Of a stretch of 62,567 nt of DNA, positions 23,582 to 52,207 are shown one piece after another. Position 1 is the first letter of the stretch. The number at the start of each line of letters is the position of its first letter. The notes beneath the pieces are model-generated. The model was not told the DNA's origin. It made no database searches and worked only from the letters and a program-made list of their open reading frames with translations. A program made the translations under genes and the position numbers. The DNA is from a virus (taxonomy: Duplodnaviria > Caudoviricetes), in IMG/VR virus record IMGVR_UViG_3300042924_005627, positions 1 to 62,567 of that record. One strand, 5' to 3'.

Positions 23582-23908
23582 ATGGGAAAACATTATCTCC
23601 TAAATCTCTTTGGATGCTCATTCGTTTTACTAAACGATGAGCATTATCTTATGGGACTCTTAGAACAAGCCGCAGCTGCAAGTGGTGCAACTGTATGTCA
23701 AACTATCTTTAAAAAGTTTGATCCACAAGGAGTTACCGTCTTGTGTTTGTTATCTGAAAGTCACATAAGTATTCACACATGGCCAGAAGATGGTAAAGCT
23801 GCTTGTGATGTTTATACTTGTGGGGATTGCGATCCAAAAATTGGTTGTGATATGATTATAGAACAACTATATGCAACAAATCATACTCTAAGTTATATTG
23901 AGAGATGA
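23582..23908 (+). CDS. speD: S-adenosylmethionine decarboxylase proenzyme
   Basis: F.PQGVT...LLSESHISIHTWPE...AACDVYTCG (E-S autocleavage motif). Confidence 0.95.
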   Translation: MGKHYLLNLFGCSFVLLNDEHYLMGLLEQAAAASGATVCQTIFKKFDPQGVTVLCLLSESHISIHTWPEDGKAACDVYTCGDCDPKIGCDMIIEQLYATNHTLSYIER

Positions 23909-24941: not shown

Positions 24942-25139
24942 ATGGAATATAAACCCTATTCTCCAGAATGGAATCGTAAAAGATACCTTAGAGAAGCACT
25001 TGAAACTTACTTCAATGATTATGTTGATATTGGTGTAATTTATGATGATCTCATGACCATTCTTCATGAGAGATCTGAACAGGCTTATAGTGAATTTTCT
25101 AGAATTAATGAGTTGGAATCAAAACTTAATCAATCTTAA
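24942..25139 (+). CDS. hypothetical protein
   Basis: MEYKPYSPEWNRKRYL...; ATG downstream of promoter. Confidence 0.7.
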   Translation: MEYKPYSPEWNRKRYLREALETYFNDYVDIGVIYDDLMTILHERSEQAYSEFSRINELESKLNQS

Positions 25140-25142
25140 TTT

Positions 25143-25158
25143 TGTATCTGATGTTACA
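25143..25158. promoter_or_regulatory. NtcA-binding site
   Basis: TGTA-TCTGATGT-TACA is a perfect TGTA-N8-TACA; intergenic; just upstream of a -35 box. Confidence 0.7.
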
Positions 25159-25165
25159 AAATTGT

Positions 25166-25195
25166 TTGACTATATAGGATGAATAGGGGTATAAT
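25166..25195 (+). promoter_or_regulatory. sigma70-type promoter of the glutamine-aptamer cassette
   Basis: TTGACT-18-TATAAT; predicted start about 25202, just before the aptamer P1 strand. Confidence 0.6.
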
Positions 25196-25205
25196 AATCC
25201 CCTAA

Positions 25206-25459
25206 CGTTCATCCTATGACTAAAGCACTTTTGCTTTTAGCATGGGTTCCACTTCTTTCTATTTCTACGCCACAACTTGCACAAACTAATAAAGTTACAA
25301 TAAGTTGCGACGCAGCGTGGGAACTTATGGACATCGTTAAAAACGACGATGTAGTAGACCAAAGAAAAGAAGACCGATTGCTATTAGAACTCCGAAAGGA
25401 TGTTTTGAAACTTAAGTGCTAAACAATTCAATAGGACGGAAGTAAGCCGACTCGGAACG
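25206..25459 (+). ncRNA. glutamine riboswitch-like aptamer 1 (glnA-like) with a CDS in the P2 loop
   Basis: P1 CGTTC(25206)/GAACG(25455); P2 TCCTAT(25212)/ATAGGA(25431); then CGGAAGTAAG-CCGA-CT. Confidence 0.6.
25216..25422 (+). CDS. small two-Cys protein with signal peptide, nested in aptamer 1
   Basis: MTKALLLLAWVPLLSIS.. then ISCDAA...LKC. Confidence 0.65.
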   Translation: MTKALLLLAWVPLLSISTPQLAQTNKVTISCDAAWELMDIVKNDDVVDQRKEDRLLLELRKDVLKLKC

Positions 25460-25462
25460 GAT

Positions 25463-25631
25463 CGTTCATCTATGGAAACACTCATTCTAACGTGCTTACA
25501 AGCACAGTTAATTTCTGGAAGAGTTCATCAACAAGAACTCCCTAGACAAGCAAAGAATGATTTAATTTGGGAGATTAAACAAATCTCACCAAAAGAGTGT
25601 AAGATAGACGCAAAAGCCGACTGAAGGAACG
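25463..25631 (+). ncRNA. glutamine riboswitch-like aptamer 2 (Downstream-peptide/glutamine-II-like) with a CDS in the P2 loop
   Basis: P1 CGTTC(25463)/GAACG(25627); P2 TCTAT(25469)/ATAGA(25604); CGCAAAAGCCGACTGAAGGAACG; directly upstream of a YRG peptide. Confidence 0.7.
25472..25624 (+). CDS. small two-Cys protein (50 aa) nested in aptamer 2
   Basis: Hand-translated METLILTCLQAQLISGRVHQQELPRQAKNDLIWEIKQISPKECKIDAKAD. Confidence 0.6.
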   Translation: METLILTCLQAQLISGRVHQQELPRQAKNDLIWEIKQISPKECKIDAKAD

Positions 25632-25663
25632 CTCTTTAACCTAAACAACTAAGGAGAACCCTA

Positions 25664-25828
25664 ATGTCTAAAGTCGTATACCGTGGTGTTGAATATGACA
25701 CCAACGACCGCCCAAATCAAACTTTGAAAAGAGAACCTCATGTAGAAATCTATCGTGGAACAATGTTCTGGGTAGATGAAAATGGAAACAAATTCTCTAT
25801 GGAAAAGTCGGGAGGTAAAGTAAAATGA
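25664..25828 (+). CDS. DUF4278-like YRG peptide (54 aa)
   Basis: MSKVVYRGVEYDT...IYRGT (two YRG motifs); AAGGAG RBS. Confidence 0.8.
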   Translation: MSKVVYRGVEYDTNDRPNQTLKREPHVEIYRGTMFWVDENGNKFSMEKSGGKVK

Positions 25829-25926
25829 ATACTTACTTCGTTCGTTATCTCAAGAAAAAAGCAAAGAAAGAAAAACTTCTTAAAGCTGCACAACTTAATA
25901 TGGCAAAGCAACCACAAATTGCTTGA
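25825..25926 (+). CDS. small basic peptide (33 aa)
   Basis: MNTYFVRYLKKKAKKEKLLKAAQLNMAKQPQIA; GGAGGT RBS; ATGA overlap. Confidence 0.6.
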   Translation: MNTYFVRYLKKKAKKEKLLKAAQLNMAKQPQIA

Positions 25927-25932
25927 AGTAAA

Positions 25933-25957
25933 GGAGGGTTTACACCCTCTTTTTTTT
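25933..25957 (+). terminator. rho-independent terminator
   Basis: GGAGGGT-TTAC-ACCCTCT followed by a T run. Confidence 0.8.
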
Positions 25958-25988
25958 GTAGTAAAATAGTAAGAGACTATGAATAATC

Positions 25989-26159
25989 ATGGACAAAGAA
26001 AGACTTAAATTGATTGTAAGAAATCTGGAGTCACTTGTAGGTGCATTAAAATCGGAGATTTATTCTGATCTAGATTCTTATAGACAAGTAAAAAAAGATG
26101 AAGGTCACATTTCAGATTATGATGAGATCTTTGAAGACGATGATGGTTACCCTGATTGA
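25989..26159 (+). CDS. hypothetical protein upstream of thyX (56 aa)
   Basis: Hand-translated MDKERLKLIVRNLESLV..LKSEIYSD...DDDGYPD. Confidence 0.7.
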   Translation: MDKERLKLIVRNLESLVGALKSEIYSDLDSYRQVKKDEGHISDYDEIFEDDDGYPD

Positions 26160-26167
26160 GGAATTAA

Positions 26168-26800
26168 ATGACTGTACGACTTATTTCGATTACTCCCGAT
26201 GCAGAACAAACAATGGCGTATATTGCGCGAGTTTCTAATCCTGCGAATCAAGACAACGAAAACTATGCCAAGTTGCTTGCTTATTGTATTAAGCATAATC
26301 ATTGGTCTGTTTTTGAACAGTCTTCTATGACCCTTGAGATTGAAACGAATCGTGGTATCGCGGCTCAAATTTTGCGCCACCGCTCGTTTACATTCCAGGA
26401 ATTTTCTCAACGGTATGCAGACACCAATCTACTGAGTACTGATATCCCGTTGCCGGAACTGCGTAGGCAGGACACTAAGAACCGCCAGAACTCGATTGAT
26501 GACTTGGATGAGGAAAGGGTCTTTGTGATGAATAAGATGATTCAAGACCTCTTCAAGGACTCTCAGGATGTCTATAACTATCTTCTGGAACAAGGTGTTG
26601 CTAAGGAATGTGCTCGTTTTGTGCTTCCCCTGGCTACGCCTACACGAATCTATATGACAGGCTCTTGTCGTTCTTGGATTCATTATATCAATCTTCGTTC
26701 TGCACACGGAACTCAAAAAGAACATATGGATATTGCACTTGCTTGCAAAGAAGTATTCAAACAACAATTCCCTTCAGTTGCAGAAGCTCTGGAGTGGTGA
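26168..26800 (+). CDS. thyX: flavin-dependent thymidylate synthase
   Basis: HWSVFE, QILRHRSFTFQEFSQRY (RHRX7S motif), AR.VLP, TQKEH. Confidence 0.97.
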   Translation: MTVRLISITPDAEQTMAYIARVSNPANQDNENYAKLLAYCIKHNHWSVFEQSSMTLEIETNRGIAAQILRHRSFTFQEFSQRYADTNLLSTDIPLPELRRQDTKNRQNSIDDLDEERVFVMNKMIQDLFKDSQDVYNYLLEQGVAKECARFVLPLATPTRIYMTGSCRSWIHYINLRSAHGTQKEHMDIALACKEVFKQQFPSVAEALEW

Positions 26801-51950: not shown

Positions 51951-52022
51951 GGGACTGTCGCCTATTGGTTAAGGCCCACTGCTTATAACGGTGTGAATGG
52001 AGTTCAATTCTCCACAGTCCTA
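51951..52022 (+). tRNA. tRNA-Ile(UAU)
   Basis: GGGACTG/CAGTCCT acceptor; CACTG-CTTATAA-CGGTG anticodon arm; TGGAG-TTCAATT-CTCCA T arm. Confidence 0.88.
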
Positions 52023-52027
52023 CCTAA

Positions 52028-52112
52028 GGGAGCGTGACGTAATTGGTAGCCGTATCGGACTTAAAATCCGCTGGATGTATAATCCGTGGGGGTTCGACTC
52101 CCCCCGCTCCTA
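52028..52112 (+). tRNA. tRNA-Leu(UAA)
   Basis: GGGAGCG/CGCTCCT acceptor; CGGA-CTTAAAA-TCCG; long variable arm; GGGGG-TTCGACT-CCCCC. Confidence 0.92.
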
Positions 52113-52135
52113 TCAGTATACATAGTATACTAGTT

Positions 52136-52207
52136 GCCCTTGTAGCTCAGTGGTAGAGCAACGGTTTTGTAAACCGTTGGTCGCTGGTTCAAATCCAGTC
52201 GGGGGCT
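52136..52207 (+). tRNA. tRNA-Thr(UGU)
   Basis: GCCCTTG/CGGGGGC acceptor; TAGCTCAGTGGTAGAGC D arm; ACGGT-TTTGTAA-ACCGT; GCTGG-TTCAAAT-CCAGT. Confidence 0.93.

Follow-up and report, generated by a model that had tools for sequence, protein, structure and literature searches.

Can the aptamer of a riboswitch be closed over a translated gene and still bear the marks of a working fold? Riboswitches are usually regarded as compact non-coding leaders, and their use by phages is said to be rare. The question is raised by the genome of a lake cyanophage (Caudoviricetes; IMG/VR record IMGVR_UViG_3300042924_005627). We analyzed the whole record of 62,567 nt, referred to here as the window, and all positions are those of the window. 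At 25206–25631 on the plus strand, which also carries the promoter, the nested ORFs and the DUF4278 gene described below, the sequence reads as two glutamine-I (glnA, RF01739)-type aptamers in tandem, each with a small open reading frame (ORF) in the loop of its P2 helix. This layout had been picked out from the window by a prediction made from the sequence alone, hereafter the original prediction.

Two aptamers and the genes within them

Unit 1 (25206–25459) reads CGTTC-A-TCCTAT, a 213-nt loop and ATAGGA-CGGAAGTAAGCCGACTCG-GAACG. Its 5′ half (25206–25217) comprises the P1 5′ strand CGTTC (25206–25210), the junction A and the P2 5′ strand TCCTAT (25212–25217), and its 3′ half (25431–25459) the P2 3′ strand ATAGGA (25431–25436), the core CGGAAGTAAGCCGACTCG and the P1 3′ strand GAACG (25455–25459). 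After a GAT linker, unit 2 (25463–25631) follows with CGTTC-A-TCTAT, a 130-nt loop and ATAGA-CGCAAAAGCCGACTGAAG-GAACG; here, the 5′ half (25463–25473) is made up of CGTTC of P1 (25463–25467), the junction A and TCTAT of P2 (25469–25473), and the 3′ half (25604–25631) of ATAGA of P2 (25604–25608), the core CGCAAAAGCCGACTGAAG and GAACG of P1 (25627–25631). P2 is 6 bp long in unit 1 and 5 bp in unit 2, and the P1 strands span 254 and 169 nt from end to end. By a base-by-base check, 21 of 21 P1 and P2 pairs in the two units are standard, in agreement with the perfect helices of the original prediction. The window of 62,567 bases contains two occurrences of the 3′-half pattern ACGSAA-N12-GGAACG, where 0.00 are expected, and none of 100 shuffles contains any match.

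The two genes are nested in these units as originally described. ORF1 (68 aa, 25216–25422) lies wholly inside the P2 loop of aptamer 1 and stops 8 nt upstream of the P2 3′ strand; its product has a hydrophobic N-terminus and two invariant cysteines, C31 and C68. ORF2 (50 aa, 25472–25624) occupies the P2 loop of aptamer 2 and runs on through the 3′ half, where its stop codon is the TGA of CTGAAGG and its C-terminal residues IDAKAD are encoded by aptamer bases. Positions 25604–25624 do double duty: they are the last seven ORF2 codons (K/P-IDAKAD-stop) and, in aptamer 2, also the core and the P2 3′ strand. Some relatives have CCC (proline) for the lysine codon AAA, which extends P2 by two G-C pairs (TCTATGG/CCATAGA). 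In both genes, the P2 5′ strand ends with the A and T of the start codon. The same holds broadly among relatives: in all of 168 distinct ORF-bearing aptamers, the ATG falls within the P2 5′ strand or at its top, 9–13 nt past the first base of CGTTCA. Nested starts directly follow the P1 strand and leave no room for a Shine–Dalgarno (SD) sequence, so what had been noticed in one sequence applies to 168/168.

Curated models do not report these aptamers. Rfam finds no glutamine family at the gathering score anywhere in the 62,567-base record, four tRNAs being the sole matches at that score, and no glutamine family (RF01739, RF01704) at E ≤ 10 in 25100–25750. The miss of long-loop aptamers is attributable to insert length. 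We used natural short-loop alleles with the same flanks to test aptamer identity against RF01739. Short-loop relatives in three freshwater or estuarine Synechococcus phages match this family at 35.6, 33.5, 28.9 and 20.4 bits (cut-off 35), and four short-loop aptamers at marine phage loci match at 35.1, 33.3, 25.4 and 24.4 bits (E ≤ 1). The 35.6-bit match is unit 1 of phage DSL-LC02, to which unit 1 of the window is base-for-base identical outside the top of P2; the 33.5-bit match is unit 2 of S-CREM1, which has a short hairpin and the same core as unit 2 of the window. The earlier assignment of the halves to glutamine riboswitches is borne out by these relatives.

Glutamine is contacted in glutamine-I by C1:G59, G2:C58 and G22 (PMC6698751, excerpt), so binding requires the two ends of each unit, its first and its last bases, to meet, and equivalents of these bases are present in both units of the window. 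Both units also share with RF01739 a CGUUC/GAACG P1, and a P2 placed right after the junction A and before ACG. The 3′ half of aptamer 1 fits the Rfam consensus GaCGGAAGUA...GGAACG. Relative to the core consensus ACGGAAGUA ... GAAGGAACG(C), unit 1 has an exact ACGGAAGTA, no GAAG and no C after GAACG, and in unit 2, GAAGGAACGC is present and ACGCAAAAG replaces ACGGAAGUA.

A resemblance to the Downstream-peptide motif had also been pointed out, and it resides in unit 2, whose ACGCA variant is shared with the glutamine-II (Downstream-peptide) sequence printed in PMC6698751 (excerpt). RF01704 itself is reached at sub-threshold scores only (26.4, 24.6 and 22.7 bits; cut-off 33), on the short-loop unit 1 of S-PM2, P-SSM2 and S-SSM7. 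The glutamine-II sequence printed in PMC6698751 has a 3′ tail similar to some of those that follow unit 2 (GGAACGGGA..CATTCTCAT). The phage aptamers may be intermediate between the glutamine-I and glutamine-II classes. Judged by sequence, the halves of both units are glutamine-riboswitch halves, and ligand binding by the long-loop forms is putative.

Conservation of the P2 helices and the nested genes

A protein search of IMG/VR returned 245 relatives of ORF1 and 243 of ORF2, of which 80 loci each were kept; as the search was by protein similarity and not by RNA, it leaves the picture of their flanks unbiased. All 80 ORF1-found loci begin with the 5′ half CGTTCATCCTATG, and all 80 ORF2-found loci with CGTTCATCTATG. 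The 3′ half follows within a few bases of the stop codon in 77 of the 80 ORF1-found loci, the remaining three being two contig ends and one premature stop, and the 3′-half columns of aptamer 2 are 80–100% conserved in the ORF2-found loci. At 160 of 160 protein-found loci, the protein family was found in one position, inside an aptamer.

We next pooled all loci, retaining distinct sequences only, and counted pairs with a script anchored on the invariant ends in 76 long-loop unit-1 and 96 long-loop unit-2 aptamers. (A MAFFT alignment of the 96 unit-2 sequences did not bring the P2 5′ strands of the subfamilies into common columns and was unusable for pair counts.) P2 positions 1–5 are paired in 92–100% of these aptamers, with compensatory changes. 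In unit 2, position 3 is T-A in 82, C-G in 12 and T-G in 2 sequences; position 4 is A-T in 81, C-G in 9, T-A in 5 and unpaired in 1; and position 5, paired in 91/96, is T-A in 79, A-T in 9, T-G in 3 and unpaired in 5. The unit-1 helices are TCCTAT/ATAGGA (63), TCCAAT/ATTGGA (3), TCTTAT/ATAAGA (1), TCCGAT/ATTGGA (1) and seven imperfect combinations. When the P2 3′ strands were randomly re-dealt, the observed pairing was matched in 0 of 1000 trials for each unit. The long-range P2 helix is conserved and covaries across the nested ORFs. A covariation test of P1 as well as P2 had been suggested in the original prediction; P2 covaries, whereas P1 is invariant, and its sequence was required by the RNA search patterns.

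Predicted folds are consistent with closure of P2 over the inserts. In the unconstrained fold of the window leader (25203–25680), the P2 pair probability is ~0.54 in unit 1 and 0.76–0.90 in unit 2. For 70 randomly picked long-loop aptamers, the mean P2 probability is 0.64 with the native insert and 0.21 with the insert shuffled, the native insert being the better in 57 of 70 (Wilcoxon p = 8e-10). In these models, the inserts are shaped to let P2 close. RNAalifold on 68 equal-length unit-2 sequences recovered P1, placed P2 out of register and found no conserved helix inside the ORF; an ACACTC/GAGTGT extension of the window fold was not conserved in this set and was discarded.

The inserts also have the properties of genes. 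There are 49 distinct DNA versions of ORF1, 43 of them 207 nt long, and 62 of ORF2, 59 of them 153 nt long. Within the equal-length versions, dN/dS is 0.43 for ORF1 and 0.22 for ORF2 (at dS ~1.0), third codon positions have the greatest column entropy in either gene, and the remaining two frames contain 3.7–7.5 stops on average. Only two of the 168 nested ORFs are truncated, and the frame is kept in 166/168 despite length changes and subfamilies of 35% identity; subfamilies down to about 30% identity retain both the frame and two invariant cysteines. By these sequence measures, the nested ORFs are protein-coding genes under purifying selection.

By hhalign (96.9%, E 2e-10), the families of ORF1 and ORF2 are homologues. 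AlphaFold2 predicts for ORF2 a two-cysteine helical hairpin with helices at residues 8–20 and 25–37 (pLDDT 85.9), and a low-confidence model for ORF1 (pLDDT 64.9). Neither protein matches Pfam or PHROGs, Foldseek finds no match in the PDB at E ≤ 0.001, and the ESM Atlas gave no usable lead on function. None of the 120 family clusters listed, of 531 in a large protein collection, carries a Pfam domain, and the source names in these 120 read ‘hypothetical protein’ or are stray labels, indole-3-glycerol phosphate synthase among them.

To describe the tandems as wholes, we collected 155 aptamer-junction matches from the kept loci, the window and three named phages, which yielded 152 complete tandems, 81 of them distinct. 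Given as unit 1/unit 2, one of these is short/short, 29 are short/ORF2, 14 are ORF1/short and 37 carry an ORF in both. Since all four combinations occur, the ORFs are modular inserts in an otherwise constant switch. An independent sample was drawn from IMG/VR by way of the 16-nt junction between the units; it gave at least 120 stretches, 83 of which were resolved on both sides, and these are short/short in 28, short/long in 25, long/short in 18 and long/long in 12 cases. At least one long, ORF-bearing loop is thus present in 55 of the 83, and the sample added further subfamilies of nested proteins.

The layout also extends to marine model phages. ORFs are found in both units of P-SSM4 (PSSM4_169.2 and PSSM4_169.3) and P-HM1 (PHM1_179 and PHM1_180), and in unit 2 alone in P-SSM2 (unit 1 short) and S-SSM7 (SSSM7_289; unit 1 a 37-nt hairpin). 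S-SRM01 and DSL-LC02 likewise combine a short hairpin in unit 1 with an ORF2 homologue in unit 2. Both units are short in S-PM2 and in S-CREM1, where TCC-GAAA-GGA is the hairpin of unit 1, a 21-nt hairpin takes the place of the loop in unit 2, and there are no nested genes. On these sequence comparisons, the gene-in-aptamer layout, originally described from a single case, is common in lake and marine T4-like cyanophages.

A tblastn search of isolated phages detected no ORF1, and ORF2 in just three of them (DSL-LC02, S-SRM01 and DSL-LC03); a sample of 401 cyanobacterial genomes gave no convincing family member (eight weak matches, six of them inside long open frames). A loose pattern scan of cellular genome contigs was set aside, as most of the 120 listed stretches were chance matches from unrelated phyla. 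In P-SSM4, two riboswitch-like elements adjoin: a manA RNA (RF01745, 184 bits; positions 219–404 of locus L422) lies just upstream of the ORF-bearing tandem.

The leader RNA and the proposed switch

A sigma-70-type promoter can be read at 25166–25195, with a −35 box TTGACT (25166–25171), an 18-nt spacer and a −10 box TATAAT (25190–25195), and it predicts an RNA start at ~25202–25203, 3–4 nt upstream of P1. The stretch turns up in lake-water metagenomes. We mapped contigs from four metatranscriptome runs on 25100–26000 and recorded contig depth, without counting low cover as evidence of absence. Depth is 0 at 25100–25130 in all four runs and at 25131–25161 in three (0.63 in the fourth, X21); it climbs from 25162–25223, drops after ~25720 and is 0 or 1.35 at 25937–25967. 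Runs X20 and X24, which come from two studies, have contigs that break off at 25202 against adapter-like letters, an end that fits a start 7 nt past the −10 box, and a single contig (X24) spans 25202–25491. Such contigs are a hint of an RNA end at 25202, and are of a kind unable to prove RNA ends or levels. Apparent joints in RNA contigs, omitting 210 or 136 nt, carry short hairpins that match short-loop alleles in DNA contigs, and we therefore read them as allelic variants rather than as splicing. In metatranscriptome contigs from the same lakes, short-hairpin alleles replace ORF1 or ORF2 (25217–25428 and 25470–25607), so long- and short-loop forms co-occur in one community.

Downstream of the tandem lies a gene for a 54-aa DUF4278 (IF17-like) protein with a repeated YRG motif (25664–25828). 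Its Pfam DUF4278 match (E 7e-4, 20.3 bits) is under the 25.3-bit cut-off; taken together with its counterparts in eight named phages, eight of the nine proteins match DUF4278 at E ≤ 7e-4, three of them above the cut-off, and the window protein matches phrog_5049 at E 1.3e-9. DUF4278 marks IF17, a glutamine synthetase-inactivating factor, and glnA aptamers lie upstream of DUF4278/IF17 genes in 25 of 28 genomes (Klahn et al., PMC6212724, excerpt). According to the same excerpt, glutamine turns IF17 synthesis on, the probable means being the melting of a helix in which a strand placed directly after P1 blocks the ribosome-binding site (RBS). The window has a likely counterpart of this expression platform at 25632–25656, where CTCTTT (25632–25637), directly following unit 2, can pair with the SD sequence AAGGAG (25651–25656); the hairpin appears in both the free and the constrained predicted folds. 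In 80 distinct tails, the SD is paired with a probability of 0.77 in the native sequence versus 0.65 with the linker shuffled (native higher in 50/80, p = 2e-4). A pairing of the ORF2 codons AAAGAG with CTCTTT was also considered and dropped, as variants with AAAAAT retain CTCTTT.

A 33-aa ORF (25825–25926), also conserved at positions 1364–1465 of locus L002 in S-SRM01, has an ATGA overlap with the DUF4278 stop codon; in S-CREM1, a single 48-aa ORF seems to join an N-terminal YRG motif to a similar C-terminus. Farther out, the ORFs at 23582–23908 and 26168–26800 resemble speD and thymidylate synthase, respectively, as judged by synteny with other phages: the tandem is preceded by speD in S-PM2 and followed by a thymidylate synthase in S-PM2, P-SSM2 and S-SRM01. 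The four tRNA genes of the window, found by Rfam at the gathering score, lie at 1650–1720 and 51951–52207, three of them clustered.

Based on these observations, we propose, with moderate confidence, that the leader RNA contains two P2-expanded glutamine-I-type aptamers in which translation of the nested genes and glutamine-locked folding would exclude each other. The leader, made from its own promoter, would present the two aptamers ahead of the DUF4278 (IF17-like) gene, each apical P2 loop being expanded to house a small gene from one phage-specific family of two-cysteine proteins. A ribosome starting on a nested ORF would cover the 5′ half of the aptamer, one finishing ORF1 would cover the P2 3′ strand of unit 1, and one finishing ORF2 would unwind the 3′ half of aptamer 2, so that translation and aptamer folding would be mutually exclusive. 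At high glutamine, the ligand would lock P1 and P2, hiding the nested start codons and turning the nested proteins off, and the SD of the IF17-like gene would be freed and the gene turned on, as in the cyanobacterial gifB switch. At low glutamine, the nested ORFs would be translated and the aptamers would stay open. More tentatively, the locus may stand for a class of cyanophage riboswitches whose aptamer is assembled around a translated gene. In such a class: (i) one glutamine sensor would have opposite outputs, nested two-cysteine proteins off and IF17-like protein on; (ii) ribosome traffic on the nested gene would feed back on ligand sensing; (iii) a two-state toggle would couple host nitrogen status to translation during infection; and (iv) phage riboswitches would be under-counted.

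Several observations weigh against this proposal. The aptamers of the window do not reach the RF01739 gathering cut-off of 35 bits, and Rfam at E ≤ 1 detects none of six long-loop aptamers in four marine phages, a blindness of covariance models to this structure that the original prediction foresaw. The C that follows GAACG in the Rfam consensus is missing from unit 1, and ACGCAAAAG for the consensus ACGGAAGUA makes the ligand and affinity of unit 2 uncertain. The shuffle tests are inflated by kinship among the sequences; P2 is invariant in the window’s own subfamilies (63 of 76 unit-1 helices are TCCTAT/ATAGGA), the covariation coming from other subfamilies; and the P2 5′ strand is also constrained by the ATG, the 3′ strand by coding in read-through ORFs. 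P1, being invariant, provides no covariation evidence, and its sequence entered the RNA-defined sets through the search pattern. The predicted ligand-free P1 pair probability in the full leader is ~0.001 because a competing hairpin, GAACG-GAT-CGTTC (25455–25467), forms in the minimum-energy fold of 25203–25680 from the linker and the P1 strands on either side of it, the 3′ one of unit 1 and the 5′ one of unit 2. Forcing both aptamers gives a structure +9.0 kcal/mol above the minimum-energy fold, a penalty of the kind that would have to be offset by ligand and tertiary contacts. SD sequestration gives a modest signal, and the regulatory logic of the long-loop aptamers is deduced from geometry. 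The inter-unit hairpin may itself be a ligand-free alternative that couples the two aptamers; the linker that forms its loop is 3 nt long in nearly all relatives and 4 nt in P-HM1.

Some of these points fit other explanations as well. The nested genes could be mere passengers, riding a strong promoter in a permissive P2 loop without meaningful glutamine regulation, while the aptamers sense glutamine for the DUF4278 gene. The P2-equivalent stem-loop of glutamine-II could be shortened for crystallization (PMC6698751, excerpt), cellular glnA matches span 56 to 102 nt, and all four short/long combinations exist, hence the ORFs are dispensable for the switch. A neutral passenger would nevertheless not need the ATG placement of 168/168 aptamers, which is within the P2 5′ strand or at its top with neither spacer nor SD, and this protein family is found only in the P2 loop (160/160 protein-found loci), the 401 cyanobacterial genomes holding only the weak matches noted above; we consider such free riding unlikely. 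It is less likely still that the inserts broke sensing and that the halves were kept as a translation start region, as a glutamine-independent stem hiding the AUG, or for RNA stability. The lack of Rfam matches to long-loop aptamers, the predicted energetic cost of aptamer formation and the lack of P1 covariation would all be expected of disabled aptamers, but with synonymous sites close to saturation, the 3′ core is retained in full, down to the bases that contact the ligand and the non-coding ones past the end of ORF1; short-loop alleles scoring at the Rfam cut-off have this same core; and short and long alleles swap freely within one lineage.

A very improbable arrangement is a hybrid or permuted aptamer, in which the 3′ half of unit 1 and the 5′ half of unit 2 would together be the working unit, the 3-nt linker closing P1 and the outer halves acting as trans partners or being leftovers. 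This centre (25431–25482; positions 332–383 of the query) is the most widely conserved stretch, with 90–96% identity in marine phages, and its GAACG-GAT-CGTTC hairpin is part of the minimum-energy fold. In register, however, TCTAT and ATAGGA pair at only three positions (U-A, C-G and U-G), it is the cognate P2 strands that covary, and this centre is also present in ordinary tandems with short loops, whose aptamers are each complete alone. Least credible of all is that the inserts are structured non-coding RNA domains rather than genes: the leader as a whole does fold well below its shuffled controls (z = −5.2), yet the dN/dS values of 0.22 and 0.43, the variable third codon position, the frame retained in 166/168 ORFs across divergent subfamilies and length changes, the stops in the other two frames and the lack of a conserved inner helix all speak for coding. 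We retain the proposal of two glutamine-I-type aptamers whose folding and nested translation would exclude each other.

The sensor in this proposal is the known glutamine riboswitch; what is new is the gene-in-aptamer layout and the coupling that it implies. The layout had been put forward as one not known to be described, and our literature search, which left outside its scope Ames and Breaker 2011 and the supplements of Weinberg 2010 and Klahn 2018 (possibly holding variable-length P2 helices or the proposed RBS pairing), found no ORF described within a riboswitch aptamer. For cyanophage genomes, McCown et al. 2017 (PMC5473149, excerpt) report no more than two glutamine aptamers. The tandem offers a natural aptamer that is split by a protein gene and yet retains the features expected of a functional fold. 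Should the coupling prove real, it would be a new wiring of a metabolite sensor to translation, and a testable link between host nitrogen status, an IF17-like phage protein that may inhibit glutamine synthetase, and an uncharacterized phage protein family. For annotation, it exposes a blind spot, as helices that close over long inserts go undetected by covariance models; if aptamers built around genes form a true class, phage riboswitches would be strongly under-counted, split aptamers being invisible to such models.

Relation to known systems

Group I introns carry homing-endonuclease ORFs in their peripheral loops. They resemble the tandem in that an RNA fold tolerates a protein gene in a peripheral loop and translation competes with folding, and they differ in that their genes are mobile endonucleases in a spliced-out ribozyme, whereas the tandem is a putative metabolite sensor in an mRNA leader with the start codon in a helix. 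Eukaryotic TPP riboswitches also form pairings across a long intervening sequence (PMC3597705, excerpt), but their output is splicing control and, in the excerpted account, no translated gene lies inside the aptamer.

The short-loop tandem of S-CREM1, annotated as a glnA riboswitch by its authors (PMC9964418, excerpt), is closer: it is a homologous locus with the same promoter position, linker and downstream gene, and it differs from the window in that its P2 loops are GAAA and a 21-nt hairpin, without nested genes. Glutamine-II (RF01704) shares the ACGCA variant of unit 2 and the DUF4278 association, and its P2-equivalent stem-loop is dispensable, a two-piece form binding glutamine (PMC6698751, excerpt); in 25100–25750, P1 is instead an ordinary helix and the pseudoknot architecture is not seen. 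The closest match is glutamine-I (RF01739), with its CGUUC/GAACG P1 and ligand-contacting pairs, its junction A, a P2 starting with U-A and C-G, much of the core ACGGAAGUA...GGAACG (in unit 1), the tandem arrangement and the position upstream of a DUF4278 gene (PMC6212724, PMC2864571 and PMC6698751, excerpts). The window departs from it by escaping the curated model, and by a P2 that closes over 213 or 130 protein-coding nucleotides with the start codon set into the helix itself.

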